A DNA stretch of 64,000 nucleotides, taken from NCBI GenBank assembly GCA_951406725.2, contig OX597834.1, forward strand, positions 40,734,001 to 40,798,000, read 5' to 3'. Positions 14,232 through 50,458 of this stretch are shown piece by piece (position 1 is the first letter of the stretch; each line of letters opens with the position of its first letter). The translations under genes and the position numbers were made by a program. The notes under the pieces were generated by a model that did no database searches, was not told where the DNA came from, and worked only from the letters and a program-made list of their open reading frames with translations. The stretch is from Octopus vulgaris. Lineage: Eukaryota.

Positions 14232-14481
14232 TTCTATAATTAATATAAAAATGTTAAACAGTCATTATGTGTGTGGCAACATTGGTTCTGACACGTCTAC
14301 ACAGTTGCAGAGAGCGACGGAATAAAATGACAGGATAAAATTTCAATTTTACCAAAATTTAAATGCCTTAGTTGCACGTGCGCTTTGTTGAAAGAGATTG
14401 TAAGCTAATTCTTCGTGCTCTGTATTTTATATTGTGTACGTGTTTTTACTATTTTCGGCATTTTTAAAAAACCCACCCAAT

Positions 14482-14802
14482 ATGTCTAAACGAAAGTGTA
14501 CAACGGACACCGACGGGAACAAAAAGAAACGGAAAGCCATCACTTTAAAAACAAAGTATGAAATTGTAAAAATGCACGATGGTGGTACAACCGTGAAGAA
14601 CATTTGTGACAGGTTTTCACTTAAATCGTCAACTGTCTGCACGATTCTCAAAGAAAAACAAAAATATTTATCTCAGGTGAGAAATGCGCAGCCTTTGCAA
14701 TCGACGTGGTCTCGTAAAAGAGATGCTGGAAGCATTATTCCGGAAATGGAAAGACTTGTAAATGCATGGATAACTGACACGACGCAACGAATGCAGATAT
14801 GA
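14482..14802 (+). CDS. Tigger/CENP-B-like transposase, N-terminal HTH DNA-binding part (frameshifted from the downstream ORF)
   Basis: KKKRKAITLKTKYEIV..SSTVCTILK (CENP-B N-terminal HTH) and EMERLVNAWI (start of the second HTH); stop overlaps the next ATG (ATGA). Confidence 0.7.
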   Translation: MSKRKCTTDTDGNKKKRKAITLKTKYEIVKMHDGGTTVKNICDRFSLKSSTVCTILKEKQKYLSQVRNAQPLQSTWSRKRDAGSIIPEMERLVNAWITDTTQRMQI

Positions 14803-16112
14803 ATGTCAATCAAGCGTCGATCCGCAGCAAAGCTTTGTCCCTTTTCAATCTGCTCAAAGAAATGAAAGGCGACACAACCGAAACTTTTGTTGCGAGCAGA
14901 GGATGGTTTGAGCGATTTAAAAATCGACATGGGTGGCATTCGGTCAGAGTGCAAGGCAAAGCACCAAACGCTGATGTCGATCCAGCAAAAACCTTTACAG
15001 AAACATTGGCAGGAACGATCGAAGAAGGGGGCTACGTGCCACAACTGATTTTTAATGTCAGTGAAACAGGACTTTTCTGGAAACGTCTGCCATCCAAGAG
15101 CTCCATTGTTAAGGAAGAATCTGCACTGCCTGGTTTCAACGTTGCAAAAGATCGACTGACATTATTATTTGGAGGAAATGCATCTGGGGATTTAAAATTA
15201 AAACCAATGCTAGTTTATCGAACGGAAAACCCTAGGGCACTCAAAGGTATCTTAAAAAGTACTCTTCCAGTCTTGTGGAAATCTAATGAAAAAGCTTGGG
15301 TTACGGCAACATTATTTGAAGAATGGTTTTCATACCACTTTGTACCGGAAGTTAAGAAATATTGTGATAAGAACCAACTTCCATTTCATGCAATGTTGAT
15401 TATTAACAATGCACCCAGCCACCCTCCAATTCTGCAACATCTCCATCCTAATGTCAAAGTTGTTTTTTTGCCTCTGGATACATCACTTTTGCAACCAATG
15501 GACCAGGGTGTTATTGCAGGTTTTAAAGCTCATTATTTACGTTATACATTTGCGATGCTGAATGAAGAAACGGTCAAAGAAGGGGGACCTACTGTAATGG
15601 AATTCTGGGAAAGTTACAACATTTATACTGCAGTGAAAATCATAAGAAAAGCATGGGATGATATCACTGAAAAGAATATGAAGAGTGCTTGGAAAAAACT
15701 TTGCCCTCAATTTCTTAATGATTCTGAGGATTTTGAATCACTACAAGAAAGTGTTCAAAAAGAAACAGAAGAAATTGTAAAACTGGCAAATGAATTGAAT
15801 CTCAACGTGTCAGCAAGTGACATAGATGAGCTGCTTCGATCACATAGTAACGAGCTTACTAACGAAGAACTTGTAGCAATGCAAGAGGAGGCAACAGCAG
15901 AAAAGGAAACGGACACTGTTGATGAAACGTCAGTTAATGCGTTCACGTTGCAAGGACTCGCAGAAGCATTTCAGCATTTGGATAAAGCGTTGGACATTTT
16001 TCAAAGACAAGATCCAAATTTTGAACGAAGTGCAAAAGTTTTTACTGCCATAACAAATGCTTCTGCATGTTACCGAGAAATTTATAAAGAGCAAAAAAAT
16101 GCTTCTTCTTAG
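14799..16112 (+). CDS. Tigger/pogo transposase-derived protein (DDE_1 domain, two catalytic Asp substituted), 437 aa
   Basis: FVASRGWFERFKNRHG, FNVSETGLFWK, KDRLTLLFGGNASGD, IINNAPSHP and LQPMDQGVI motifs of the Tigger/TIGD family. Confidence 0.8.
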   Translation: MNVNQASIRSKALSLFNLLKEMKGDTTETFVASRGWFERFKNRHGWHSVRVQGKAPNADVDPAKTFTETLAGTIEEGGYVPQLIFNVSETGLFWKRLPSKSSIVKEESALPGFNVAKDRLTLLFGGNASGDLKLKPMLVYRTENPRALKGILKSTLPVLWKSNEKAWVTATLFEEWFSYHFVPEVKKYCDKNQLPFHAMLIINNAPSHPPILQHLHPNVKVVFLPLDTSLLQPMDQGVIAGFKAHYLRYTFAMLNEETVKEGGPTVMEFWESYNIYTAVKIIRKAWDDITEKNMKSAWKKLCPQFLNDSEDFESLQESVQKETEEIVKLANELNLNVSASDIDELLRSHSNELTNEELVAMQEEATAEKETDTVDETSVNAFTLQGLAEAFQHLDKALDIFQRQDPNFERSAKVFTAITNASACYREIYKEQKNASS

Positions 16113-24195: not shown

Positions 24196-24460
24196 CATAT
24201 CAATAACGTAGCAGCGATAGTGGCGGCGGCGGCGGCGGTGGTGGTAGGACGACATAAAATATGAGAGATGACCTCATAAGGTGAAAGGTGAAGTCTTGAG
24301 AGGTCAGGGGAAAACATTCACATAACTTCCGGCGATACAGTTCACTCTTCCCTCTATCGGATAAATAATGAAATATATCAATACAAAGGGGAACAACCTT
24401 CACGATGCGTGTCATGTAAATATCACAAAGTTTGAAACCAGCTTCGGCCACGTGGGATGA
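24196..24460 (-). promoter_or_regulatory. Putative promoter and non-coding exon 1 of ZNF gene 2
   Basis: Minus-strand consensus donor ATG|GTAAGT at 24196/24195; CCG/CCA triplet run; ETS-like CCGGAAGT near 24330; E-box CACGTG near 24450. Confidence 0.5.
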
Positions 24461-25749
24461 GAATTTAAGAGAGGAAACTATTTAATTTTCTATTTCTTTA
24501 CTACCCACAAGGGGCTAAACACAGAAGGGGACAGACAGACAGATTAAGTCGATTTGATCGACCTCAGTGCGCAACTGGTACTTATTTAATCGACCCCCGA
24601 AAGGATGAAAGGCAAAGTCGACCTCAGCTGAATTTGAACTCAGGACCTAAAGACAGACGTAATACTTATTTCTTTACTACCCAGAAGGGGCGATCCTTCG
24701 GTAGAAGTACCGTAAGTGGCTTTGTTTACGTTTCTGAAGATAACTGAAACCCTTTTCTCCCACCTCTAACCCTAACACAAACCCTAATACTACCCCCCCC
24801 CACCATATATGTATATATATATCAAAAAACACTTTCTTGAAATGTATCCGTTACTTATACCGAAGTTACGCCACTATTTAATTTCATTAACCTTTTTTTT
24901 TGCTGCCCTGGGACTTTATTTTATCGATTCCGAAAGAACGAATGAATGCCTCGGCGGGGTTCGAACTTGGAATGGTAAAGAACCGTTAGAAATGCCGCTT
25001 CGCATTCTACCAGCTCGCAATCTTACGCGTGTGGTATAATATCTAATACTGCTTTATTTTTATGAAACGGGTGAGTTGACAAAGATTTGTTGTAAGGCTG
25101 TAAAAAGGTGTATCAATGGCATAATATATTTCCTCATTGTAGCTTTTACGAATGGGATAAAATGTGTTTCGAAATTCATGTTTGTCTATTACTAATGAAA
25201 ACCTTTTTATATACGTTCTTGACCGCCTTGCTTGCATGCAAGGGATGTCATCTTTTTTTCATAATTACTGACCTATTTATTTTTTGACCTCTTACCAACT
25301 TGACCCAAATTAGCATCCAATTTTTTAAGCAATTTCTGAAGAAGGTAGGTATTCCTTCGATATGACTCGACAAAATCAAAATTGGACTCCGGTATTTTCC
25401 GAAATTCCCTACCCCACTCTTCCTAAAACACGCCCCTCCCCAAACATTTGGGATCTACATGATATAACACATATTCGTAGGGAATTTCATTAAAAAAATA
25501 TCCATTTTACTGAAAGTTATGATCATCTAAAGTAGGGGAGTCGATAAAAAAATATTCGATGTAAATTGGATTGATAAATTTATTATTTATTTATGATTGA
25601 CTGTTATATGCAAGATCAAATATATAAGTTGCATTTGTTTCTTTACAGTTAAAGAAGACAAGATTGGTATATTCGGTAAATTTGGACAAGTATACCTGCA
25701 TTCGGTTCACCAAAAGAAAAAAACCCGGATTTTTCACCTGGAAAAGTAT

Positions 25750-27130
25750 CTTTCCCGCCAAAACTCTAATAGGGGAACTAATGCGTTTCATTTTTGCGTG
25801 GGGAGAGAGAGACAATCAATGTTTTCACTCTACAAAGAAGCGATTTAAAAGAAATATATGCTTATAGAAAACTATTGTATCTTTTAAAAATATCCTTAAT
25901 TTACATATTGTATGTTGTATGCGTGTGTGTTTTTTTATTTGTTTTCTCTTCCACAGTACTTGTTCATTTCTGTGTGTGTGCGTGAGAGAGAGAGCTGAAA
26001 AGCATATAAAAATAAGCGGAATTTGCAAAGCTGTTCGGATTTAGTTCTACCGTGATGTCGTGTGCAACCTGTCAGCGCATATACTATGATTGCATCTATG
26101 ATTTTCATAAGCAGAATGAAGAATCTATTGTATTCCTCCGGAACCATGGTGTTCTGCCCACTGATGTAATATGTCCACGCTGTCGGAGTGAATGCGTGTA
26201 TATAAAGGAAGAGCATCTCTGGCAGTGCAGGAGCTACACTGACGCTGAATCTAGAAAACGGCAGCAGTGTGATTATTCAGTATCGGACTTTAAAGGATCC
26301 TTTCTTGATAATGCACGCATTCCTCCGTGGAAAGTCGTTCTTTTTGTAAACGAATTTCTAAATCAAACTTGGAGTGATATGATACTGATGGCGAAGCAGG
26401 AAATGTGTTTAAGAGCTCAAGAATGGAGGTCGTTCTGCTGTGGAGTAACAGAAAACTGGCTTCACAAACAGGAACAAATTGGTGGAGAATCAATTGAGGT
26501 CGAAATTGGTGAGGCCTTAATTGTCCACCGGAAACCTGACAGGGGTCCAATTTTGAACCAAGTTTGGTTGTTTGGTGGATTAGAGCGAACCAGTAAGCGT
26601 CATTTCGTTGTGCCACTAATAGATAAGGAGCGTGACAAAGCGACACTGGTTCCTCTGATCCAGACATTTATCAAACCTGGCTCAGTTATTTATAGTGATA
26701 CAGGGGCTGCCTACAGTGATTTAAGCAGTTTGGGTTATCACCATTACGTGATAAACCATTCTGAAAATAGTGATCAAACGCATATTCACACACAAAACAT
26801 TGAACATTTGTGGAGGAAGATAAAATGGAGTATGAGAAGGCTGTCAAGTACTGGATCCAAATGTTTCCATCAATATCTGGCCAGATATTTATTTATTTCC
26901 TCAGAGAAGGACAAGTCAGTATTACACCACAAATTTTTTCGAGAGGCAGCCCAATTATATGTACCCCTCTCGGACCAGCCATGTCCTTCAACTACATAAG
27001 GACTTATGTCTCTCCTCTCTTTCATAGAAGGCTCTCTCTCTCTCTCCATAGTTTCTCATCTTTCTCTCTCTCTCTCCTTACCTACACGGAAATGAAACGC
27101 ATTAGTTACCCGATTAGTTTCAGCGGGAAA
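25750..27130 (+). mobile_element. Merlin (IS1595/IS1016-like) transposon with decayed inverted repeats, copy 1
   Basis: TTTCCCGCCAAAACTCTAATAGGGGAACTAATGCGTTTCATTT vs AAATGAAACGCATTAGTTACCCGATTAGTTTCAGCGGGAAA flank the ORF; no TSD found. Confidence 0.75.
26055..26999 (+). CDS. Merlin/ISXO2-like transposase-derived protein, copy 1
   Basis: Zn-ribbon-like CPRC..WQC; VEIGE, WLFGGLER, IKPGSVIYSD, AY..L...GY.H..INHS and HTQNIE.LW motifs of DDE_Tnp_IS1595; ATG at 26055. Confidence 0.85.
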   Translation: MSCATCQRIYYDCIYDFHKQNEESIVFLRNHGVLPTDVICPRCRSECVYIKEEHLWQCRSYTDAESRKRQQCDYSVSDFKGSFLDNARIPPWKVVLFVNEFLNQTWSDMILMAKQEMCLRAQEWRSFCCGVTENWLHKQEQIGGESIEVEIGEALIVHRKPDRGPILNQVWLFGGLERTSKRHFVVPLIDKERDKATLVPLIQTFIKPGSVIYSDTGAAYSDLSSLGYHHYVINHSENSDQTHIHTQNIEHLWRKIKWSMRRLSSTGSKCFHQYLARYLFISSEKDKSVLHHKFFREAAQLYVPLSDQPCPSTT

Positions 27131-27407
27131 ACTTGTGAAAGGAAAGTGATTTTGGTTTTTCAAACCCTCAATACTGTTTCAGTCTATTCTGCAATCTGGG
27201 ATTAATGTATCCAGTGATCTTAAGAGGTATGGAAAAGATATTTTATTTTAATATTATGCCTTTACTTATTTCACACAAACACAAAAATTCTCCAGGGGAT
27301 TCATTCTTGAGAGTGTAGATAGATTACAATGCAGGTTTATCTTTTACTTGCTTCAGTCACTGGACTGCGGTCACACTGGGACACAGCCTTGAAAGGATTA
27401 GTCAAAC

Positions 27408-27850
27408 ATCATCATCATCATAATTTTTTAACGTCCGCTTTCCATGCTAGCGTGGGTTGGACGATTTGACTGAGGACTGGCAAACCAGAAGGCTGCACCA
27501 GGCTCCAATCTGATCTGGCAGAGTTTCTGCAGCTGGATGCCCTTCCTAATGCCAACCACTCCAAGAGTGTAGAGGGTGCTTTTACGTGCCACTCAGGCAG
27601 TACTGGCAACGGCCACGCTCAAATGGTGTTTTTTACATGTCAGTGGCACTGGCAACGACCTTGCTCAAATGTTTTTTCACATGTCAGTAAGACGACACTG
27701 GTAGGGGTCACGCACGAATGGTGCTTTTTACATTCCACCGGCACGGAAGCCGGTTTGCTGCTCTGGCAACGATCACACTCGGATGGTGCTCTTAGTGCTC
27801 CACCAGCACAGATGCCAGTCATCGAATTTGATTTTGATTTCACTTGCCTC
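27408..27850 (-). mobile_element. SINE-like element, family D
   Basis: (CAT)n tail followed by the reverse-complement family D core. Confidence 0.7.
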
Positions 27851-28267
27851 AACTTTAAGAGTAAGATTCATATGTTTAAGTAAAGGATTATATCTATAGT
27901 TTATCATTATAAAAATGTAAAATTTCTAATCTTTAAATGACTTATATTTTGTTTTTTCTATTGTTTCAGAAAAACAGACAACATTGTTATTTTATTCAGA
28001 TGCATTATTAATATTCATCATTTGCTAATGACTAAAGGAAGATATTTCAGATTTTATTTTGGATTACCGTAACATATTGCCTTTGAATAAAATGAATAGC
28101 AAAATATTTATTTTGCCACCATACAAAATGATCAAATTTGAACAAATTTGCGAAAGATTTTGCAGTGTTTCAACATGAGGATTAAGATTACAGCTGAAGG
28201 AAACTTAGAAAGAAAATGCAAGACCAAATAGGAGAAAATATTTGGACATTGTGAAAAGAGAAAATTG

Positions 28268-28745
28268 ATGGTAAAAGAATAATTGAAGAACCAAAGTATA
28301 GATCAAATACAATCTAAAAGTATTGATTTTTATATGTTGAACAAGATGAAGAAAACATACCACTGTGATGTCTGTAAAAAATCAGTCTCTCATAAAAGTA
28401 ACTTTCCTCACAAATGCTTCCATACAGGAGGAAAACCATATCACTGCAATAGCTGTGGTAAAGTATTTGCTACAACTAATTATTTAACAGCTCACAAGCG
28501 TATCCATACAGGAGAGAGACCATATCGCTGTGATATCTATGGTAAATCCTTCTCTCAAAACTTTGTAACTACTCACAAGCGCATTCATACTGGAGAGAAG
28601 CCATATTACTGCAGCATCTGTGATAAATCATTCTCTGAAAAAAAGTCTCTTAACTACACACAGCCATATTCATACAGGAGAAACACCATATCACTGTGAT
28701 AAATCATTTTCTGTGAGTAGTGCCTTGATTAGTCACAATGTATTA
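28268..28745 (+). pseudogene. C2H2 ZNF pseudogene (duplication copy 1)
   Basis: ATG GTA AAA GAA TAA early stop in the family leader; shortened fingers, C>Y change, frameshift near 28640; acceptor TTTCAG at 27969. Confidence 0.8.
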
Positions 28746-29460
28746 ACCAAAGGATTTTACCTTTTCTACACTAAAGATATAAAGAGTAAATCCTTCAATT
28801 AATGCAGTGAGTGATAGTCTTTCATTGAACTCCTTTAATTTCTCTACAAGCATCAGAAATAATTGTTGATTCTGGTAGTTCATAGATAGGAAGGCAAAAT
28901 ATACACATCGACAATCAATCGAAAAAATGTTTTTCTTCAAATGGAAATAATTAAAAGTACACTCAGATATGGTTGTCCACAAAGCAGAAAAGAGAAAGAT
29001 GAACCATTATTATTAGATTCTGCTGGTTACTGTTGAGACCTCAGGTGTTCTTGGACTTCCGTCTGCTGATTTTTCTCCCCAAAATCATATCTGAGAAATG
29101 AGCTCCATGTGGTGGGGGTGGCTGTTTTCTGTAGCAATGCTTTTGCAATCATGCTAGTGAGGCATGATGAAAGACACATCATTTGCTCTGGGATACACAA
29201 CCCATTATTCCCCCCCCCCATCTGTTGCTTTTTTTTTTTGTTTCCTTGGTGATGCAGTTATGGGTTTTGTTAATTTGATCCTTTATACTTTTAATGTTTT
29301 TCTTTCTGTAAAAGTGTGTTAATAAAACTGAAGGTAAAAAAACAAAGTAATAAAACGTGTGATGTTTATTAATTTCTTTATTATTTTTTACACCATTGAA
29401 GTAAATAATTTAACATCCTCCTCAATTGCTGGCATGGGTCGGATGGTCTGGCAGGAGCTG

Positions 29461-30458
29461 TGACACTCGCAAATTGATATTCAACCAGACCATCAAGTCA
29501 TGGAGGAGTCACACTATAAATATATCATCATCATCGTTTAATGTCCACCTTGCAAACTGCCATGGGTTGGATGGTTTGACAAGAGGCAGACAGGCAGAAG
29601 ATTGCACCAGACTTCTGTGTCCATTTTGGCATGATCTTTACAGCTGGATGCCCTCCCTAACAACAACCACCTCACAGAACGGAATACAAGAAATGATAAA
29701 TATAAGATCTTATTATCACTTCCTTGAAGACAGATATACACAAAGCTCCAAATCAGAATACATACAATACTTGAAAGAATGTATATAAATAACATCCATA
29801 ATATATATAGGATGATAAAGGATAAAGATCCTTCACAAGTTATAGACTCATAGGGCTAGTTTCCCAGTTTATGTGGAGCATACATTCCCCACTGGACAGA
29901 ACACTGGTCCATCAAAGGATTACTCATTTTTGCCAGCTGAGCGGACTGGAGCAAAGTGGAATGAAGTGTTTTGCTCAAGAACACATTGTATTGCTTGATC
30001 GAGGAATCGAAACCTAAATCATACAATCATGAGTCCAACACCTTAACCACTAAGCAACACACTTGCACCAAAATATATATAAGGGCTTACATGCACATAC
30101 ATACTACTGTGGTATGACAAAAGAATTTTTGCCATGAATCCTGTGTTTATTTCTAACATGATAACTGTAGAGAGAAGTTGATCCTGATTTAGGACAATAC
30201 AATTCTCAGTCATTTATTCACAATGTCAAATAAATCAATACAATGCTTTTTTTTTCCCTTTGGACATATGCTAGATGGAATATATATGAGCATTCCGAAA
30301 TGACTGGTAAGCCGTCTCACCAATGTAGGAATAGTTGAGGACGTGTGTATGTGTTTGTGTATATAATGAAGTGTTGGGTGGTTGTTTTCACACCATCATA
30401 TTTTTTAAAGTATATTCGTTAGATATATGTTATACAAAAAAATCCATTTTCACATTGT
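29461..30458 (+). repeat. ~1-kb copy of the 3' flank/3'UTR of ZNF gene 3, inserted at the duplication junction
   Basis: Collinear near-identity to 49395-50385. Confidence 0.92.
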
Positions 30459-32295
30459 TAAAATATGAGAGATGACCTCATAAGGTGAAAGGTGAAGTGT
30501 TGAGAGGTCAGGGGAAAACATTCACATAACTTCCGACGATACAGTTCACTCTTCCCTCTATCGGATAAATAATGAAATATATCAATACAAAGGGGAACAA
30601 CCTTCACGATGCGTGTCATGTAAATATCACAAAGTTTGAAACCAGCTTCGGCCACGTGGGATGAGAATTTAAGAGAGGAAACTATTTAATTTTCTATTTC
30701 TTTACTACCCACAAGGGGCTAAACACAGAAGGGGACAGACAGACAGATTAAGTCGATTTGATCGACCTCAGTGCGCAACTGGTACTTATTTAATCGACCC
30801 CCGAAAGGATGAAAGGCAAAGTCGACCTCAGCTGAATTTGAACTCAGGACCTAAAGACAGACGTAATACTTATTTCTTTACTACCCACAAGGGGCGATCC
30901 TTCGGTAGAAGTACCGTAAGTGGCTTTGTTTACGTTTCTGAAGATAACTGAAACCCTTTTCTCCCATCTCTAACCCTAACACAAACCCTAATCCTAGCCC
31001 CCCCCCACCATATATATATATATATAAAAAAAACACTTTCTGGAAATGTATCCGTTACTTATACCGAAGTTACGCCACTATTTAATTTCATTAACCTTTT
31101 TTTTTTGCTGCCCTGGGACTTTATTTTATCGATTCCGAAAGAACGAATGAATGCCTCGGCGGGGTTCGAACTTGGAATGGTAAAGAACCGTTAGAAATGC
31201 CGCTTCGCATTCTACCAGCTCGCAGTCTTACGCGTGTGGTATAATATCTAATACTGGTTTATTTTTATGAAACGGGTGAGTTGACAAAGATTTGTTGTAA
31301 GGCTGTAAAAAGGTGTATCAATGGCATAATATATTTCCTCATTGTAGCTTTTACGAATGGGATAAAATGTGTTTCGAAATTCATGTTTGTCTATTACTAA
31401 TGAAAACTTTTTATATACGTTCTTGACCGCCTTGCTTGCATGCAAGGGATGTCATCTTTTTTTCATAATTACTGACCTATTTATTTTTTGACCTCTTACC
31501 AACTTGACCCAAATTAGCATCCAATTTTTTAAGCAATTTCTGAAGAAGGTAGGTATTCCTTCGATATCACTCGACAAAATCAAACTTGGACTCCAGTATT
31601 TTCCGAAATTCCATACCCCACTCTTCCTAACCCCCCCCCCCCGAAAAAACCATTTTTTTGTATATTTGGGATCTACATGATATAACACATATTCGTAGGG
31701 AATTTCATTAAAAAATATCCATTTTACTGAAAGTTATGATCATCTAAAGTAGGGGAGTCGATAAAAAAATATTCGATGTAAATTGGATTGATAAATTTAT
31801 TATTTATTTATGGTTGACTGTTATATACAAGATCAAATATATAAGTTGCATTTGTTTCTTTACAGTTAAAGAAGACAAGATTGGTATATTCGGTATTACT
31901 TATTCGGTAAATTTGGACAAGTATACCTGCATTCGGTTCACCAAAAGAAAAAAAAACCCGGATTTTTCACCTGGAAAAGTATCTTTCCCGCCAAAACTCT
32001 AATAGGGGAACTAATGCGTTTCATTTTTGCGTGGGGAGAGAGAGACAATCAATGTTTTCACTCTACAAAGAAGCGATTTAAAAGAAATATATGCTTATAG
32101 AAAACTATTGTATCTTTTTAAAATATCCTTAATTTACATATTGTATGTTGTGTGCGTGTGTGTTTTTTTATTTTTCAATTTGTTTTCTCTTCCACAGTAC
32201 TTGTTCATTTCTGTGTGTGTGCGTGAGAGAGAGAGCTGAAAAGCATATAAAAATAAGAGGAATTTGCCCAGCTGTTCGGATTTAGTTCTACCGTG

Positions 32296-33240
32296 ATGTC
32301 GTGTGCAACCTGTCAGCGCTTATACTTTGATTGCATCCGTGATTTTTCTATGCAGAATGAAGAATCTATTGTATTCCTCCGGAACCATGGTGTTCTGCCC
32401 ACTGATGTAATATGTCCACGCTGTCGGAGTGAATGTGTGTATATAAAGGAAGAGCATCTCTGGCAGTGCAGGAGCTACACTGACGCTGAATCTAGAAAAC
32501 GGCAGCAGTGTCGTTATTCTGTATCGGACTTTAAAGGATCCTTTCTTGATAATGCACACATTCCTCCGTGGAAAGTCGTTCTTTTCGTAAACGAATTTCT
32601 AAATCATACTTGGAGTGATATGATACTGATGGCGAAGCAGGAATTGTGTTTAAGAGCTCAAGAATGGAGGTCATTCTGCTGTGGAGTAACAGAAAACTGG
32701 CTTCACAAACAGGAACAAATTGGTGGAGAATCAATTGAGGTTGAAATTGGTGAGGCCTTAATTGTCCACCGGAAACCTGACAGGGGTCCAATTTTGAACC
32801 AAGTTTGGTTGTTTGGTGGATTAGAGCGAACCAGTAAGCGTCGTTTCGTTGTGCCACTAATAAATAAGGAGCGTGACAAAGCGACACTGGTTCCTCTGAT
32901 CCAGACATTTATCAAACCTGGCTCAGTTATTTATAGTGATACAGGGGCTGCCTACAGTGATTTAAGCAGTTTGGGTTATCACCATTACGTGATAAACCAT
33001 TCTGAAAATAGTGATCAAACGCATATTCACACACAAAACATTGAACATTTGTGGAGGAAGATAAAATGGAGTATGAGAAGGCTGTCAAGTACTGGGTCCA
33101 AATGTTTCCATCAATATCTGGCCAGATATTTATTTATTTCCTCAGAGAAGGACAAGTCAGTATTACACCACAAATTTTTTCGAGAGGCAGCTCAATTATA
33201 TGTACCCCTCTCGGACCAGCCATGTCCTTCAACTACATAA
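32296..33240 (+). CDS. Merlin/ISXO2-like transposase-derived protein, copy 2
   Basis: Same length as copy 1, 11 aa differences, no indels or stops; same VEIGE substitution. Confidence 0.85.
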   Translation: MSCATCQRLYFDCIRDFSMQNEESIVFLRNHGVLPTDVICPRCRSECVYIKEEHLWQCRSYTDAESRKRQQCRYSVSDFKGSFLDNAHIPPWKVVLFVNEFLNHTWSDMILMAKQELCLRAQEWRSFCCGVTENWLHKQEQIGGESIEVEIGEALIVHRKPDRGPILNQVWLFGGLERTSKRRFVVPLINKERDKATLVPLIQTFIKPGSVIYSDTGAAYSDLSSLGYHHYVINHSENSDQTHIHTQNIEHLWRKIKWSMRRLSSTGSKCFHQYLARYLFISSEKDKSVLHHKFFREAAQLYVPLSDQPCPSTT

Positions 33241-33647
33241 GGACTTATGTCTCTCCTCTCTTTCATAGAAGGCTCTCTCTCTCTCTCCATAGTTTCTCAT
33301 CTTTCTCTCTCTCTCCTTACCTACACGGAAATGAAACGCATTAGTTACCCGATTAGTTTCAGCGGGAAAAACTTGTGAAAGGAAAGTGATTTTGGTTTTT
33401 CAAACCCTCAATACTGTTTCAGTCTATTCTGCAATCTGGGATTAATGTATCCAGTGATCTTAAGAGGTATGGAAAAGATATTTTATTTTAGCATTATACC
33501 TTTACTTATTTCACACAAACACAAAAATTCTCCAGGGGATTCATTCTTGAGAGTGTAGATAGATTACAATGCAGGTTTATGTTTTACTTGCTTCAGTCAC
33601 TGGACTGCGGTCACACTGGGACACAGCCTTGAAAGGATTAGTCAAAC

Positions 33648-34090
33648 ATCATCATCATCATAATTTTTTAACGTCCGCTTTCCATGCTAGCGTGGGTTGG
33701 ACGATTTGACTGAGGACTGGCAAACCAGAAGGCTGCACCAGGCTCCAATCTGATCTGGCAGAGTTTCTGCAGCTGGATGCCCTTCCTAATGCCAACCACT
33801 CCAAGAGTGTAGAGGGTGCTTTTACGTGCCACTCAGGCAGTACTGGCAACGGCCACGCTCAAATGGTGTTTTTTACATGTCAGCGGCACTGGCAACGACC
33901 TTGCTCAAATGTTTTTTCACATGTCAGTAAGACGACACTGGTAGGGATCACGCACGAATGGTGCTTTTTACATTCCACCGGCACGGAAGCCGGTTTGCTG
34001 CTCTGGCAACGATCACACTCGGATGGTGCTCTTAGTGCTCCACTAGCACAGATGCCAGTCATCGAATTTGATTTTGATTTCACTTGCCTC
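33648..34090 (-). mobile_element. SINE-like element, family D (duplicate of 27408-27850)
   Basis: Part of duplication copy 2. Confidence 0.7.
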
Positions 34091-34506
34091 AACTTTAAGA
34101 GTAAGATTCATATGTTTAAGTAAAGGATTATATCTATAGTTTATCATTATAAAAATGTAAAATTTCTAATCTTTAAATGACTTATATTTTGCTTTTTCTA
34201 TTGTTTCAGAAAAACACAACATTGTTATTTTATTCAGATGCATTATTAATATTCATCATTTGCTAATGACTAAAGGAAGATATTTCGGATTTTATTTTGG
34301 ATTACCGTAACATATTGCCTTTGAATAAAATGAAATTGCAAAATATTTATTTTGCCACCGTACAAAATGATCAAATTTGAACAAATTTACGAAAGATTTT
34401 GCAGTGTTTCAACATGAGGATTAAGATTACAGCTGAAGGAAACTTAGAAAGAAAATGCAAGACCAAATAGGAGAAAATATTTGGACATTGTGAAAAAACA
34501 AAATTG

Positions 34507-34790
34507 ATGGGAAAAGAATAATAGAAGAACCAAAGTATGGATCAAATACAATCTAAAAGTATTGATTTTTATATGTTGAAAGCATACCACTGTGATGTCT
34601 GTAAAAAATCAGTCTCTCATAAAAGCGCATTCATACTGGAGAGAAGCCATATTACTGCAGCATCCGTGTTAAATCATTCTCTCAAAAAAAGTCTCTTAAC
34701 TACACACAGCCATATTCATACAGGAGAAACACCATATCACTGTGATAAATCATTTTCTGTGAGTAGTGCCTTGATTAGTCACAATGTATT
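34507..34790 (+). pseudogene. C2H2 ZNF pseudogene (duplication copy 2, further deleted)
   Basis: Homologous to 28268-28745 but missing about two fingers and frameshifted. Confidence 0.8.
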
Positions 34791-36836
34791 AACCGAAGGA
34801 TTTTACCTTTTCTACACTAAAGATATAAAGAGTAAATGCTTCAATTAATGCAGTGAGTGATAGTCTTTCATTGAACTCCTTTAATTTCTCTACAAGCATC
34901 AGAAATAATTGTTGATTCTGGTAGTTCATAGATAGGAAGGCAAAATATACACATCGACAATCAATCGAAAAAATGTTTTTCTTCAAATGGAAATAATTAA
35001 AAGTACACTCAGGTATGGTTGTCCACAAAGCAGAAAAGAGAAATATGAACCATTATTATTAGATTCTGCTGGTTACTGTTGAGACCTCAGGTGTTCTTGG
35101 ACCTCACGCTGCTGATTTTTATCCCCAAAATCATATCTGAGAAATGAGCTCCATGTGGTGGGGGTGGCTGTTTTCTGTAGCAATGCTTTTGCGATCATGC
35201 TAATGAGGCATGATGAAAGACACATCATTTGCTCTGGGATACACAACCCATTACTCATCCCCCCCCACACATGTTGCTTTTTTTTTTTTTTGTTTCCTTG
35301 GTGATGCAGTTATGGGTTTTGTTAATTTGATCCTTTATACTTTTAATGTTTTTCTTTCTGTAAAAGTGTGTTAATAAAACTGAAGGTAAAAAAACAAAGT
35401 AATAAAACGTGTGATGTTTATTAATTTCTTTATTATTTTTTACACCATTGAAGTAAATAATTTAACATCCTCCTCAATTGCTGGCATGGGTCGGATGGTC
35501 TGGCAGGAGCTGGCAAGATAGAAGACTCTACTATCAAGACAAAACCCCTTAATGAAATGAGGAGGGGGTTGGCTTTGTGCCAGGTGATGAGAGGTTAGAG
35601 CTGTAATTCCAAATGTGGAGCACTGGTGAGGCATACATACATAGTTAGGGGGCAATTCGTGAATGAGTTAAAAAAGAATTCTTTTACATCCCCTCTATGA
35701 CAAATTTATCAAATTTTGACACTTTAGAGACATCAAAACAGGTTGTGTGCATCAGTCATAAACACAAGATCTGATGTCTCTAAAGTGGCAATCTTGTAAT
35801 AATTACAAACGTGTGTGTGTGGTATAGAATCTATGGATGCACAAAACAAACAAAATGAAATAAATATGGATGACTTGTTTGAAAACACCTGCAAGTGAGG
35901 AACAGTTCTCAAAGATAGACCCAAAATTCCTACGTCCTTGGAATCTACATAATCGAAAGGTATATTTGTAGAGAATTTCATTAAAAAAGTATCCATTTTC
36001 TTGAAAGTTAAGATGAATTGAATTGGACTCTGGTGAAATTTCCAAAATTCCCCTTCTAAAATACTTTCCCCCCCAAATTTTGTATATTCGGAATCTACAT
36101 GATATAACATTCGTAAATAATTTCATTAAAAATATCCATTTTTCTGAAATTTATGATCAGCCAAAGTTGAGGATGCAAAAATTTGTAGTTATGCTGATTC
36201 AAAAATACGGTAGTGTAAGTAAAATAATGTTCGTCAACATTCAGAGGAATATTTAAAATTTGGATTTATACTCGCTATCCACGATAAACTGACACCAGGT
36301 TATGGGCAAAAAACTCGGATCTTGTGAATTTTCTGAAGTCCTTTCTCCATTCCTAGGAAAAGATTTTCCCATAAACATCTTTATAGTCGTTATCTATGCT
36401 GGTTGAATATAAAATTTTATTAAAAAAAAACATTTTCCTAAAAGTTACGAGGGAAAAACTCGGATCATGCGAATTTTCCGAAGTCCCTCTACCATTCATT
36501 AATGTGAATTTGTTTCATATTCGTTTCCTAAACATTTTATTTTGAATAACAAAAATTATATATCACAAGGGGGCATCAGGATTTCAGAAATGATTTGGTG
36601 GGGCATGGTCAGAAATCAGCTGGGAACCACTGAATAAGAGTGTGACTAGAGGAGATACATGGCAACCTCAGCTGGAGAAAGATAATATGTGACAGGGAAG
36701 TGTATATAATGAAATGGACCATGGACAGCATGTGACTGGGTTGGGTAAAGAGAGTGATGGAAAAATAAGTGCCACAAGATAATCATCGTCATCGTTTAAC
36801 GTCCATTCTCCTCTCTTTCTCTTCTCTTCTTTTAAA

Positions 36837-40561: not shown

Positions 40562-41047
40562 CTATCCTGTGTGAACACGTTTGTGCTTAGTTAAGTTACC
40601 ATTTTGAGAAAATGATTTACCACAGATATCACAGTGATATGGCTTTTCACCAGTGTGCGTGTACATGTGTTTAGTTAAACCGTATCTTCGAGTGAATGTT
40701 TTCCCACAGATATCACAGTGATATGGCTTCTCTCCCGTATGAATGCGTATGTGAGTAATCAATTCACTATTTCGAGAGAATGCTTTATCACAGATGTCGC
40801 AGTCATAAGGTTTCTCTCCTGTATGAATGCGTACATGAGAAGTTAATTCACCATTTCTAGAAAAGGATTTACCACAAATATCACATTCAAATGGCTTCTC
40901 TCTTGTATGAATATGTCTATGTTTAGTTAAGTCACAATTTCCAGAGGAAGATTTACCACAGATGTCACAACAATAAGGTTTTTCCCCTGTATGAATCCGT
41001 ATGTGAGCGGTTAAGTTACTACTTTCAGAAAATGATTTATCACAGAT

Positions 41048-44000
41048 AATAATAATAATAATAATAATAATTGTGTACAGTGCTCAGGTGCACTACAACT
41101 CATCTAAAGTGTATATATAATCAGGTGAAGTTTCGGCGGATTTCGGAAAGCATGAGGGCCTTAAAAGATGCAGTGTCATGGCAGTCAACAACTGACGCAG
41201 GCAGTTTATTCCATGCTTCAGCAACTCTGAGCGTGAAAAAATGTTTCCGAAAGTCATGGGAGCTGTATTGTTTTCTGACTTTGTAGGCATGTCCACGTGT
41301 GTTAGACACATGGAGATCAAAAAGGTGTTCAGTGTTGTTGTTGGTGAGGTGGTTGATAACTTTGTGGGTGTTTACCAAGTCCGTCGCCAAACGCCGGAGC
41401 TTCAGTGAATCCATGCCCAGGGAAACAAGGCGCTCAGAATATGGTAGGTGTCTGATGGAGGGTATGCGTTTGGTTGCACGTCTCTGGACAGATTCCAGGA
41501 GGTCAATGTTCTGTGCAAGATAGGGGTTCCAAACTGATGATGCGAATTCCAAGTGTGGTCGTACCATAGCTGTATACAGTTTTAAATAGATGGCTGGAGA
41601 GCGGCTAACAAAAGACCTGCTGAGTGATGCCAAGACACCCTCGGCCTTCCTGACAATCTTAGAGATATGCTTTGACCAACGCAAATCACTGCTGACAGTG
41701 ATGCCTAGGTCACGCTCGCAAGAGGATTTCTTGATATCAGTGTTGTGGAGGGAGTATGTGAACGCAGGGTTTTTTCTCCCAAAATGCATGGTGGTACACT
41801 TGTCCACAGCCAGTTTCAGTTGCCAGTCTGTGATCCATTGCTGCATTGTGTCTAGGTCTGATTGCAGGAAAGAGTTGTAGACATCAGGATCTGTCCTCTT
41901 GATTTCAAGGTACAGCTTGATGTCGTCTGCATATTTCAATACTGTGGCATTCTTTAAATTGGCATCTATGTCGTTAATGTATGCCACAAACAAGAGGGGG
42001 CCAAGGACAGATCCCTGTGGTACACCCGATGACATCTCATATGGTGTAGAGTGCTGTCCTAGAACTGTGACTACCTCCTTTCGGCTGAGGATGAAGGATT
42101 TCAACCAGTTAAAAAGGTCATCCCCCACACCCATTGCAGAGAGTTTCACCATAAGCCTTTTGTGTGGCACAGAGTTGAAAGCCTTAGCAAAGTCAAGGTA
42201 GACAACATCCACCCATGAGCCACTGTCAGTAATCTGAGTAATGTCCTCAAGGAACTCGACAAGCTGGTCACTGCAGCTGGAGTTAGGGACAAATCCATAT
42301 TGTGAGGGTCGGATGAGACTGTGAGAGCTCCAGAAGTTCCAGAGTGTTTCTCTGACACACGATTCCATCAGTTTTGCAATACAGCTAGTGAGACTGACTG
42401 GGCGATAGTTGACAGGTGATGTGCGGTCGCCCTTTTTGAACAGAGGAATGACACTGGCAGTTTTCCACTGCTCCGGAGTAGCACCATTGTTGAGACAGTA
42501 CTGGAAGAAAATAGAAAGCTGGTGTAAAAGGAAGTGCCTGCCACGTTTGAGAAGCAGGTATGTAACTCCATCGAGACCAGGGGAGGCATAGTTGCGCTTA
42601 TTTTGAAGGTGACGTCGCAGCATTGCAGGTGTAAATTCCATAGTTGTTATGGAGTTTGCTGTTAGTGATGGTGAAGATGGTACATTTTGACTTTCAACAG
42701 TGAATATGTTTGCATAGCACTCGGCAATGAGTTCTGCGCATTCCTTGGGGTCGTCAGTGATCTGGTTTGTGTGAGGGTTGCGAAGAGGGCCCACTGGAGA
42801 GTGAGGTCTCTGCTTTGAGTGCACATATTTCCAGAAAACCTTGCTGTCAGGATTGGCTGCTATGCACTGTTCAAATTCAAGCACTGCTTTTTTTGTCACT
42901 TGCTTGAGATGGTTGGAGGATTTATTCCGCTTCTTCCTGTTGGTGTCTGATTTATGCAACCTGTATTCCCGTTCAGCAGTCCGACGTTCCCTCCTGGCAA
43001 GTCGGACCGCTGAAGTTTCCCAAATTGCCCTTTTGGGGCGGTTCTTCTTTTTTTGTTTACGTGGCACTGATGCTGCACATGCTGCCCATATTGAGTCCAG
43101 GATACTCTGGAGTATAGTATTCACATCTCCAGAGTTGTAGAATTCACGCCAGTTTGGGTGCTGTAGTTCAGTGTGGTACAGGTTCCAATCTGCTCTCTTC
43201 CAATCGAAGGAAGCAGATTGGAGATGGTTCAGGTTTTTGTTGCCCGCAAGAGCCAGATTGGCGATGATCATAGCATGATCAGAGTCACCTAGAGGTTCCT
43301 CCGTAGTGCAATTGATAACCGCTTCAGGAGTTGTGGTGAAGAGCAGGTCCAAGGTGTTGTCGCCTCTTGTTGGAGAGGTGACTACTTGTGACCAGTTTGA
43401 GTCCAGCACAAGCTCAACAAAATCGTTTGCACTCTGTGGCCAATGGAAGGTCTCCCAATCGATCTCAGGATGATTGAAATCGCCTGCAATAAACACATAA
43501 GTGGCTGTTTTCCTGGCAGCAGCTCGGAGGACATTGCAAAGCTGTGTGTCCCGATGGTAACTTGGGGGACGATAAACAACGCCAAGCAGGAGTGTTGACA
43601 TGGTCATACGCACGTCACAGAAAAAAACTTCTTCTTGTGATTCGTTCAAATCGGCACAAGGAATTACCAAAAAATTTGAACGAACGTAGACCATCACACC
43701 ACCACCACGGCGGTTAGTGCGGTCCTTACGGAAGAGGTTGTACCCCGTAATGTTGAAAACCCCATCACAGAGTAAGGAATGCGCCCATGTTTCCGTGACA
43801 GTGATGAAGTCAGGGTCAACACTTCTGACGTAGGCGTTGAACAAATGTATTTTGTTGCATAAACTGCGAGCATTTAAGGACAACAATTTGTACCCTGCTC
43901 GCAGTTTATGATGGTGTGTAGAGGATGGCAGGTTGTTCTGGCTTAGTTTCCCTGAGTTGCTGTAGTTTTTTTAGTTATTGTGGGTAGAGAGCACTCAGAC

Positions 44001-44132
44001 CAGCTGGTATCTCTCTTCCACGTTTCAGCAGTCTTGACAAATCTCCAGATTTGTCCATCTTCCCGAAGACTGAAGCTTTCCTGTAGAGCTGAGTTCCTAT
44101 TCAGGGAAGCCACTACACGTAGCTTTGGGCGT
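41048..44132 (-). mobile_element. CR1-like non-LTR retrotransposon (LINE), 5' truncated
   Basis: Intact APE-RT ORF2, short 3'UTR, (TTA)n tail, GC-rich relative to flanks, inserted in a ZNF finger. Confidence 0.93.
41121..43886 (-). CDS. LINE ORF2: apurinic-like endonuclease and reverse transcriptase (921 aa)
   Basis: LNARS, VTETW, GDFNHP, LDL, SDH (APE); YRPVSLT, YLDFAKAF, GVPQGSVLGPLLF, YADD (RT); C-terminal TRGH..FF..RV..WN.LP typical of CR1-group LINEs. Confidence 0.95.
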   Translation of the reverse strand: MLSLNARSLCNKIHLFNAYVRSVDPDFITVTETWAHSLLCDGVFNITGYNLFRKDRTNRRGGGVMVYVRSNFLVIPCADLNESQEEVFFCDVRMTMSTLLLGVVYRPPSYHRDTQLCNVLRAAARKTATYVFIAGDFNHPEIDWETFHWPQSANDFVELVLDSNWSQVVTSPTRGDNTLDLLFTTTPEAVINCTTEEPLGDSDHAMIIANLALAGNKNLNHLQSASFDWKRADWNLYHTELQHPNWREFYNSGDVNTILQSILDSIWAACAASVPRKQKKKNRPKRAIWETSAVRLARRERRTAEREYRLHKSDTNRKKRNKSSNHLKQVTKKAVLEFEQCIAANPDSKVFWKYVHSKQRPHSPVGPLRNPHTNQITDDPKECAELIAECYANIFTVESQNVPSSPSLTANSITTMEFTPAMLRRHLQNKRNYASPGLDGVTYLLLKRGRHFLLHQLSIFFQYCLNNGATPEQWKTASVIPLFKKGDRTSPVNYRPVSLTSCIAKLMESCVRETLWNFWSSHSLIRPSQYGFVPNSSCSDQLVEFLEDITQITDSGSWVDVVYLDFAKAFNSVPHKRLMVKLSAMGVGDDLFNWLKSFILSRKEVVTVLGQHSTPYEMSSGVPQGSVLGPLLFVAYINDIDANLKNATVLKYADDIKLYLEIKRTDPDVYNSFLQSDLDTMQQWITDWQLKLAVDKCTTMHFGRKNPAFTYSLHNTDIKKSSCERDLGITVSSDLRWSKHISKIVRKAEGVLASLSRSFVSRSPAIYLKLYTAMVRPHLEFASSVWNPYLAQNIDLLESVQRRATKRIPSIRHLPYSERLVSLGMDSLKLRRLATDLVNTHKVINHLTNNNTEHLFDLHVSNTRGHAYKVRKQYSSHDFRKHFFTLRVAEAWNKLPASVVDCHDTASFKALMLSEIRRNFT

Positions 44133-46343
44133 ACAGTGATATGGCTTTTCTGTGACATATGTCACAGTGATATGGCTTTTCTCCAGTATGAATGCGTTTG
44201 TGTTTAGTTAAATTACAATTCTGTGAGAATGATTTACCACAGATATTACAGTGATATGGCTTCTCTCCTGTATGAATGCGCTTGTGAGTAGTAAGATGAG
44301 TTTCTTGAGAGAAAGATTTACCACAGGTGTGGCAGTGAAATGGTTTTTGCCCAGTATGAATATGCTCATGTTTTGCTAACTGATCACCTCTGGAGAATAA
44401 TTTACCACAGGTATCACAACGATATGGTTTCTCACCTGTATGAGTTCGTTTATGTATAGTTAAATGAGCAGCTTGAGAGAATGATGTGCCACAGATGTCA
44501 CAGTGGTAAGGTTTATCTCCAGTATGAATGTGTTTATGTTTGGTCAAATGATTATGCTGCAAAAACGATTTACCACAGATGTCACAGTGGTACGGTCTCT
44601 CACCTGTATGAATGCGTTTATGACAAATTAAGTTATTTCCATTTGAGAAAGATGCACCACAGATTTCACAGCGATATAGTTTTTCTCTGGTATGAATGTA
44701 TTTATGCTTCGTCAAGCTGCGAATTTTAGAGAAAGATTTGCCGCAAATATTACAGCAAAATGGTTTTTCTTCTATATTAGTGTGCATGAGTTCAGGTAAA
44801 CGATTAATTTCAAAGAACAATTTCCAACAAATTTCACTTGATATGGCTTCTCTCCTGCATAAATGGATATGCAGGCAGTGAAGTTATTTCTTGCAGAGAA
44901 TGATTTACCACAGTTATTACTGTGGTATGGTTATGGTTTTTCTCCTGTATGTGTATCTTTGTAATTAGTAAAGCTATTATTGTGAGAAAAAGATTCCCCA
45001 GGTATCACTGTGATAAGGCTTCTCTCCTGTAGGAATACATTTGGGAACAGTCAGCTTGCCTTTTTAAGAGAATGAGTTTGTAGTGATATCACAATAATAT
45101 GAGTTCCCTATTTCATATTTTTACAATGAAAATCAATCCTTTTAAATTGTCATAATTTTAACTTTGTTCAGAAATAATTTATCATCTATAATTATTCTTT
45201 CACAATATTGATACTTTCTTTCTTTCTATTTTTAAATCTTTTTCCTAAAAGACAATACCTACTGCTGTACTTCTATTAAACAGTGATATTTGTCAAATGC
45301 TGAAGATACTGCAAACTCTTTTTTCACATCTGTCCACGTTTAAGTAGAATGCAAAACAAGCTTGCACACATTCAGATAGTCAAGTAAACAAATTTTGTTG
45401 ATATTATCACTCAGAGGTAGTATTCCACACTAATTGTTCCACAGATTTATGTAGCCAAATTTACACAACTGTTGCGTATAACATATTCCTCAGTCGTTAA
45501 TAGGTGATGGTGCTTCTGATAATCCTTTTTAATGCCAATGTCATCCGATATTCTGAAATAATAAAGAAATATTATCAGTTATATAAGATACTAAAAAATT
45601 TTAGATTCAGCAATTATTTTACTATAATTTTAGTAGTGTACATGATACTGATAAACTACAGATACCAGTTTTTATCTTTACTCTCTTATTTGTTTCAGTC
45701 ATTTGACTGCGGCCATGCTGGAGCACCGCCTTTAGTCAAGCATAAAATAGTCGGCATTCCTTCGATATAACTCGAGAAAATCAAAACATTTCACTCTCGG
45801 GTATTTCCGTGGGTCGTGGAAATAACGAAATTATGCCAGCAACGTCTCATTTCAAACTTGGAGTGGCCTTATAGGCTGCCGGCTTCGATCTTTTAAACTT
45901 TTATTCGTTTTCTTTTTAATTAAAAAAAAAAAAGTTCTAGTTTAAAGGAAATGGCAAAGTTTCGCATGTCGTAGCACAGATTTCCGTCGATTTCCGTAAA
46001 AAACTTTTATTTTTTTACATAAGTAATGAGAGCGAAAGAGACTAAGAGGAAGCGATTTTATGACGAGAAGGTTTCTCTTTGAAATCGGCCTGTGTGTGTT
46101 TGATGGGGTGTGGGAGACAGACAGTATGTTGTGTAAGTGAAGTGCTTCTGTTAGTGTGTGCGAAGAGACAGAGAGAGTAATGTGTGAAAGAGAGAGATAA
46201 CTGATTTTTTACTCGGTGTATGTGTATATGTATGTATGCATGTATGTGTGTGTGTGTGTATGTATCTATGTATGTGTGTGTGTATGTATGTATGGCCGAT
46301 TCATCGTAATTTTTTACTCGGTGTATGTGTATATGTGTGTCTG

Positions 46344-49055: not shown

Positions 49056-50458
49056 TTAAAAGTTATTTCAATAATTTATTGAATGTTCATCTTCTAGAGA
49101 TTTAATAAAAAGAGGAGAGAAAGGTGAATGACTTTGAACTTTATCACTTGATTCCTTTAAACCTTTAAATTCTGATGCACATATCTCAGCTCAAACAAAA
49201 CTTTATTTATCAAAATAAACACCATCAGAATCAACACATTTTTACCAATGCAAAACAAGTTTATTTATCCAAATGTTGGCTTTCACAATCAATGAAAATA
49301 TACAGAATGAACATTAAAACATTGATGCTGATGATGATGATGATTCACAAATTATACCATGGACTTCGCATTTATATTATGTTCAAGGCTACACTGACAC
49401 TCGCAAAGTGACATTCAACCTGCCATGGAGGAGTCACACTATAAATATATCATCATCATCATTTAATGTCCACCTTCCAAACTGCCATGGGTTGGATGGT
49501 TTGACAAGAGGCAGACAGGCAGAAGACTGCACCAGACTTCTGTGTCCATTTTGGCATGATCTTTACAGCTGGATGCCCTCCCTAACAACAACCACCTCAC
49601 AGAACGGAATACAAGAAATGATAAATATAAGATCTTATTATCACTTCCCTGAAGACAGATATACACTAAGCTCCAAATCAGAATACATACAATACTTGAA
49701 AGAATGTATATAAATAACATCCATAATATATATAGGATGATAAAGGATAAAGATCCTTCACAAATCATAGACTCATAGGGCTAGTTTCCCAGTTTATGTG
49801 GAGCATATATTCCCCACTGGACAGAACACTGGTCCATCGGAGGATTACTCATTTTTGCCAGCTGAGCGGACTGGAGCAAAGTGGAATGAAGTATTTTGCT
49901 CAAGAACACATTGCATTGCTTGATCGAGGAATTGAAACCTAAATCATACAATCATGAGTCCAACACCTTAACCACTAAGCAACACACCTCCACCAAAATA
50001 TATATAAGGGCTTACATGCACATACATACTACTATGGTATGACAAAAGAACTTTTGCCATGAATCCTGTGTTTATTTCTAACATGATAACTGTAGAGAGA
50101 AGTTGATCCTGATTTAGGACAATACAATTCTCAGTCATTTATTCACAATGTCAAATAAATCAATACAATGCTTTTTTTTTCCCTTTGGAAATATGCTAGA
50201 TGGAATATATATGAGCATTCTGAAATGACTGGTAAGCTGTCTCACCAATGTAGGAATAGTTGAGGGCGTGTGTATGTGTTTGTGTATATAATGAAGTGTT
50301 GGGTGGTTGTTTTCACACCATCATATTTTTTAAAGTACATTTGTAAGATATATCTTATACAAAAACATCCCTTTTCACATTGTTACAGTGGTTTCTTCAG
50401 TATCCATAAATGCATGTGTAGCTCAGTAACTTTTATGAGAAAGGATTTGCCACAAATA

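Follow-up and report, generated by a model that had tools for sequence, protein, structure and literature searches.

A Merlin/IS1595 transposase frame in a zinc-finger cluster

The window, a 64-kb stretch of Octopus vulgaris DNA, carries clustered C2H2 zinc-finger genes interspersed with repeats. It holds a transposase frame of the Merlin/IS1595 type, flanked by remnants of inverted repeats and present again in a tandem copy (Table 1). An earlier note on this DNA had described an intact Merlin-like frame in which the first catalytic motif, VE(I/V)DE, reads VEIGE, while YSD (D215) and NIE (E250) keep the other two acidic residues in both copies. Our results agree on each point. The frame is open over 314 codons with no stop, and a profile search matches it to Pfam PF12762 (DDE_Tnp_IS1595) with an E-value of 1.5e-15 and a score of 57.9 bits, where the cut-off is 27. 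Both ORFs carry the three motifs as described. The window protein thus reads G152-D215-E250 and lacks the D-D-E triad of autonomous Merlin elements. The column where the window has Gly is occupied by Asp in 76 of the 86 other relatives in the alignment, by Gly in five and by Asn in two; the remaining three have a gap.

Table 1. Features of the transposase locus and of two further transposon-derived frames in the window.
Feature	Positions	Strand	Remarks
Candidate promoter and first exon	24690-25070	+	ends at donor ACGG/GTGAGT; CpG observed/expected 1.37; join to next exon inferred
Exon with entire element	25649-27226	+	acceptor TTTACAG/25649 to donor 27226/GTATGG; ~1.58 kb
Left inverted-repeat remnant	25751-25812	+	terminal GG and target duplication unrecognisable; carries TCCCGCCAA
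Five upstream ATGs	25781-26045	+	9-41 codons each; none in frame with ORF
Merlin/IS1595 transposase ORF	26055-26999	+	314 aa; N-terminal part rich in Cys, helices in the middle, RNase H-like core holding G152/D215/E250
Hypervariable patch 1, aa 8-21	26076-26117	+	11 of 14 residues differ from O. bimaculoides protein, P 0.0014
Hypervariable patch 2, aa 103-122	26361-26420	+	predicted helix-turn-helix; 12 of 20 residues differ from KOF76175.1
GGT, Gly152 at first catalytic Asp	26508-26510	+	motif VEIGE
In-frame GT..AG segment, 34 codons	26562-26663	+	coincides exactly with gap in O. bimaculoides gene model; retained in X1 record 5
Right inverted-repeat remnant	27067-27130	-	pairs with 25751-25812
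GT-AG intron, 743 nt	27227-27969	+	absent in X1 record 5; 3' end crossed unspliced in X19 and X20
Terminal exon of cluster C2H2 zinc-finger gene	27970-28900	+	frameshifts and stops in both copies
Tandem duplicate of 24255-29460	30459-35512	+	second intact ORF at 32296-33240
Tigger/pogo-like transposase	14404-16112	+	two overlapping frames, frameshift near 14790
LINE ORF2	41121-43970	-	open over 949 codons; endonuclease and reverse transcriptase

In DDE enzymes the first Asp binds metal, and DNA cutting is not expected without it. We predict that the window transposase is unable to cut DNA. The damage to the protein exceeds this one residue. Of the columns that are strongly conserved in the family (at least 80%), 15 of 103 are altered, including W217G, E130G and R251H. 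By comparison, the median loss of conserved columns is 5% among 46 near-full-length relatives whose triad is intact, and 22% among nine whose triad is not. Short in-frame indels relative to the family lie near residues 120, 238 and 263, and a compensated frameshift may lie near aa 256-267. All seven conserved N-terminal Cys residues are kept, as are H31 and C128. The AlphaFold2 model is confident (pLDDT 82.7, lowest around aa 101-120, ends aside), and structure comparison shows that its predicted core resembles retroviral integrase folds. The Asp-to-Gly change, being A-to-G, might in principle be a fixed RNA-editing site, but relatives beyond the octopus branch have it too.

The two inverted repeats match in 52 of 66 columns (79%) with six gap columns (E 9e-12). 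The relative L029 also carries TCCCGCCAA, 18 nt inside its GG-starting 28-bp TIR, so the true ends of the window element appear lost. Described Merlin TIRs measure 24-462 bp and start with 5'-GG (available text of PMC8101967). Outward extension of the repeat was no better than in 154 of 300 shuffles, with no GG terminus on both sides. A search for target duplications of 8-9 bp with at most one mismatch returned nine pairs, none of them with GG at both inner ends. The earlier description of eroded TIRs without a target duplication therefore stands. When 24 of 80 related loci were examined for inverted repeats, five were positive and only L029 had a clean GG-starting TIR.

Splicing and copy number

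Four of 24 listed sequencing runs were chosen for alignment to 24300-28900: X1 and X13, the two RNA-like runs, of which X1 was considered RNA only by guess, and the DNA runs X19 and X20. Records 1 to 5 of X1 tile the element-bearing exon with a single gap of 14 nt (26403-26416). Record 1 starts exactly at 25649, directly after the AG acceptor, and carries 50 unplaced letters upstream of it. Record 5 joins 26417-27224 to 27968-28521, which gives the 743-nt intron once the shared AG is allowed for. This splice, together with the unspliced passage of X19 and X20 across 27970, places the whole element within an exon spliced to the 27970 exon. Five other zinc-finger exons within the window have acceptor regions homologous to that of the 27970 exon. 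Thus one run, taken as RNA by guess, shows that the element sits in a spliced exon of a broken C2H2 zinc-finger gene. This is the main feature of the locus, and the earlier note had missed it. The contigs carry no strand, start or level information and are no proof that one transcript spans them. Within the window, no paralogue of the middle exon from before the insertion was found.

The transposase is the only long frame remaining in the spliced unit. A fusion of zinc-finger and transposase frames is ruled out because the transposase stop precedes the intron. Among longer proteins, one match in 738 candidates joins a Merlin domain to Vps52, which is weak evidence for the absence of fusions. 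A predicted acceptor at 25956/25957 would skip the upstream ATGs; record 1 of X1 runs through it unspliced. An exon junction lies 227 nt beyond the ORF stop, and this junction and the upstream ATGs may limit translation. Both N-terminal variants occur in X1 at similar depth (14.8 and 11.4). X13 has no cover over the ORF, and we draw nothing from it. At 26272, X1 reads A-to-G but lacks the adjacent change that copy 2, X19 and X20 carry, so that it would be either a third allele or an A-to-I edit.

Non-coding divergence between the tandem copies is 1.45%, close to the heterozygosity of 1.22% given for the O. vulgaris assembly in the available text of PMC10700109. The pair may be a recent 6.2-kb duplication or two alleles assembled in series. 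Since copy 2 lies within the duplicate, the two copies amount to one observation of Gly: the earlier note was right that both carry it, but they are not independent. The spacer between the copies (29461-30460) has 96% identity to 49395-50385, beside another zinc-finger gene 20 kb off, and this likeness may be a sign of rearrangement or of an assembly join.

Copy number was judged from contigs of the sequencing runs at an identity of at least 88%, below which copies are invisible. Between 25994 and 26455, X19 has a depth of 40-48 and X20 one of 4-7, resembling single flanking contigs. The DDE half attracts extra short pieces from other loci (~89-94% identity in the contigs listed), and depth there reaches 144-285 in X19 and 28-67 in X20. 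At this threshold no dispersed Gly-bearing copy appeared, and the 5' half of the ORF stands at single-locus depth in both DNA runs, X19 and X20. The flanks are found in the two runs as well, and the element is immobile at one locus plus its tandem duplicate.

Together these features make the frame a Merlin transposase by descent that fails the tests for an active element. Like Merlin/IS1595 elements (PF12762; available text of PMC8101967), it has the DDE_Tnp_IS1595 domain, a single ORF in the range of ~310-340 aa, the conserved Cys pattern and the inverted-repeat motif CCCGCCA. Unlike them, it has Gly for the first Asp, no 5'-GG termini and no 8-9 bp duplication, and it is embedded in a spliced host exon at a single locus.

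Relatives and constraint on the frame

The closest relative is O. sinensis LOC118767442, where an identical 314-aa protein stands under four RefSeq accessions (XP_036367921-924). It carries the same Gly, differs from the window protein at nine residues (97% identity) and is its mate in the 90% cluster. Next comes KOF76175.1 (OCBIM_22033671mg; our P0003) with 75% identity, an O. bimaculoides protein given as partial in the supplement of PMC8101967. Both genes are annotated only as uncharacterised or hypothetical. A tree built with a quick method from 55 of 89 proteins (P0050-P0084, and with them P0056 and P0057, were left out) unites seven octopus proteins in one branch (SH-aLRT 99) and places KOF76175.1 as sister to the window group (99). 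The two share two derived deletions, and both already lack the family-conserved E130, H108 and L115 and the TSVDW and FVDP segments. KOF76175.1 keeps D-D-E, including Asp152, as well as Trp217. Thus Gly is younger than that split, if the genes are orthologues. The KOF76175.1 gene model lacks the 34 codons of the window's GT..AG segment, which may reflect alternative splicing or a detour of the model round a lesion.

Three other O. bimaculoides family members that we found are pieces of 113-173 aa. A profile-free search of 1.84 billion representatives returned no closer full-length protein, and no orthologue was found outside Octopus, where the best full-length match has 51% identity. The five relatives with Gly at the first-Asp column (P0004, P0011, P0017, P0056 and P0057) are full-length and each forms a single-member cluster; they are possibly further dead, retained Merlin genes. 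A common origin of the window Gly with that of other VEIGE proteins is unsupported, P0004, P0011 and P0017 lying outside the octopus branch. Two long relatives, P0145 (1750 aa) and P0164 (1611 aa), have four to five tandem DDE_Tnp_IS1595 domains with repeated helix-turn-helix matches. In alignment A2, Zn_ribbon_IS1595 gives a weak match to five of 25 members (best E 0.0098), and the N-terminal Cys residues are conserved in the clade. The Merlins described in the available text of PMC8101967 lack this domain.

We compared the differences between close sequences with a neutral simulation, using 72 conserved sites among 222 columns for KOF76175.1. Only nine of the 52 differences from that protein fall at family-conserved sites, against a neutral 16.0 +/- 2.8 (2 of 400 simulations as low, P ~0.005). 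Likewise, none of the 11 differences between copy 1 and copy 2 does (neutral 3.5, P 0.015). The same test against O. sinensis gave a null result (two of nine, neutral 2.9, P 0.42). Changes along the protein are clumped, with a block variance equalled in about 1 in 10,000 shuffles, while aa 81-100 are identical at 20 of 20 residues. Two patches stand out. The first holds five of the 11 differences between the copies; in the second the family TSVDW reads AQEW, with a one-residue deletion. Together they hold seven of the 15 sites varying among three close sequences (P 0.0003), or five of 13 when two sites common to KOF76175.1 are left out (P 0.006). Because these same data served to set the limits of the patches, the P values for the patches are optimistic.

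Three full-length sequences carry several in-frame indels and no frameshift. Between the copies pN is 1.9%, not lower than the 1.45% of flanking non-coding DNA; pS is 3.6% (seven changes), and pN/pS is 0.52 on 21 changes. Record 18 of X19 (25558-26816, depth 36), the sole contig given for that region, is one base short near 26456. This deletion would shorten the product to 154 aa; X20 is intact at the site. X19 also carries letters that match the O. sinensis protein.

Under assumed indel rates, a neutral frame would survive 0.1 substitutions per site with a probability of ~1e-5 to 5e-4, and 0.05 substitutions per site with 0.003-0.018. In the neutral model the whole distance to KOF76175.1 is covered by 0.125 substitutions per site, or ~0.06 per lineage. 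The split of O. bimaculoides from O. vulgaris and O. sinensis is put at ~34 Mya in the available text of PMC10700109, and a rate of 0.0036 substitutions per My is given in that of PMC13282606. If that rate applies per lineage, 34 My give ~0.12 substitutions per site in one lineage.

Relic, recent mobility or co-option

The earlier note implied that the gene is domesticated, and set against this many dispersed Gly-bearing copies with target duplications, or a species-specific and silent locus. We found instead single-locus depth, splicing in X1, an annotated O. sinensis gene and an O. bimaculoides sister protein. Domestication itself is only partly borne out: splicing in X1, single-locus depth and the sparing of conserved sites against KOF76175.1 speak for it, while the X19 frameshift allele, a pN at or above flanking divergence and a Gly younger than the O. 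bimaculoides split speak against. On balance we see about an even chance that weak selection has kept the transposase as a young, non-cutting, DNA-binding host protein.

A transcribed relic has a substantial probability too, though clearly below even. Here an old insertion would be read passively from the zinc-finger promoter and decay neutrally, as one unhit frame among hundreds, and the insertion itself may have killed the zinc-finger gene. The X19 allele, the pN, the null result against O. sinensis, the 15 lost conserved columns and the ATGs ahead of the ORF are all as expected of such a relic. Its root-to-tip distance (~0.47) lies within the 0.23-0.57 of fragmentary octopus copies. The family is also large, with 191 Merlin sequences in O. 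bimaculoides (available text of PMC8101967), and a younger insertion, one of about 190 copies each surviving 0.05 substitutions per site with a probability of 0.003-0.018, could plausibly have escaped by chance. What neutral decay explains poorly is that conserved sites were spared in two comparisons, that changes clump so strongly around an unchanged aa 81-100, and that the three full-length sequences acquired indels in frame only.

Selection during a mobile phase is distinctly improbable. KOF76175.1 and the window copy would be separate insertions of a divergent, recently active Merlin subfamily, with Asp152 lost late and decay just starting, and conserved sites would have been spared because the transposase was then at work. 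An intact D-D-E and W217 in KOF76175.1 would suit this, its synteny with the window locus is unproven, Merlin TIRs can be very imperfect (available text of PMC8101967), and two Merlin families with 11 recent insertions are reported for O. vulgaris (available text of PMC13282606). Yet in neither X19 nor X20 is the 5' half of the ORF covered by another locus at 88% identity or above, the residues and segments missing from the window protein are missing from KOF76175.1 as well, and TIR ends and target duplication are gone. That the enzyme tolerates Gly and is still active we find hardly credible: five of 83 relatives with a residue at the column do have Gly, but three of these five lack another triad residue as well, the first Asp is a metal ligand in DDE enzymes, and the element occupies a single locus with no target duplication.

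Under weakly constrained co-option, the insertion would predate the split of O. bimaculoides from O. vulgaris and O. sinensis, ~34 Mya (available text of PMC10700109), if KOF76175.1 is the orthologue. The zinc-finger promoter, putatively at 24690-25070, would then have driven the transposase frame, which comes first on the RNA, and the zinc-finger frame would have decayed afterwards. Asp152 would have been replaced by Gly at a later time, in the lineage that the window shares with O. sinensis. The protein would act through its retained Cys/His zinc-binding region and a dimer-forming core; the helix region, putatively a helix-turn-helix, has been rewritten while the Cys/His set and the core fold are retained. 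As to its role, we offer the guess, unlikely to be right in this form, of a non-cutting binder that restrains its own Merlin family by binding or poisoning that family's transposase or DNA. The fast change in two helices fits a conflict with that family. A fuller account, which we hold tentatively and with well under even confidence, is that Merlin took over a C2H2 zinc-finger unit, of a class linked to transposon control, and replaced its gene product. Catalysis would have been lost in the lineage of O. vulgaris and O. sinensis, and two helices that putatively contact DNA or a partner would be diversifying under selection, so that Octopus would show a domestication still in progress.

The primate CSB-PGBD3 is a transposase gene that exploits host splicing, and the pogo-derived TIGD/CENP-B genes are catalytically dead. 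The octopus locus resembles these in that a DNA-transposon frame is expressed through host exons and has lost catalytic residues. It differs from them in having no fusion protein, with a separate transposase frame ahead of a dead host frame. Putatively domesticated Merlin genes are described from Stentor, Symbiodinium, Perkinsus, Bodo and Perkinsela (available text of PMC8101967), and the candidates in the literature that we found are confined to protists. They share with the octopus gene a preserved ORF, no sign of mobility, a sometimes altered DDE and segmental duplication of copies. Unlike these protist genes, which have no TIR, the octopus gene is an animal gene with TIR remnants, hence younger, and uses zinc-finger exons. 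Neither this locus nor any domesticated Merlin gene of a cephalopod turned up in the literature that we searched, and supplements of papers other than PMC8101967 could mention the gene; the word Merlin is absent from the main text of PMC10027918, PMC12513265 and PMC12988792.

With TIR remnants, an Asp-bearing sister and segregating variants, a case as young as this would allow the steps of co-option to be ordered and tested with few genomes. If co-option is true, the locus illustrates one route by which cephalopod zinc-finger clusters lend promoters to new genes; as a relic it would be no more than a transcribed insertion of the ordinary sort.

The zinc-finger cluster holds a second long, catalytically altered transposase frame, of the Tigger/pogo type. 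Its first part (14404-14802) matches CENP-B_N and its second (14778-16112, 444 aa) HTH_Tnp_Tc5 and DDE_1. Where DETG and DNA.. would be expected as the first two catalytic motifs, it has SETG and NNAPSH. The LINE ORF2 frame has part of a zinc-finger array on either side (40562-41083 and 44113-44883), as if it had recently been inserted into a zinc-finger exon.
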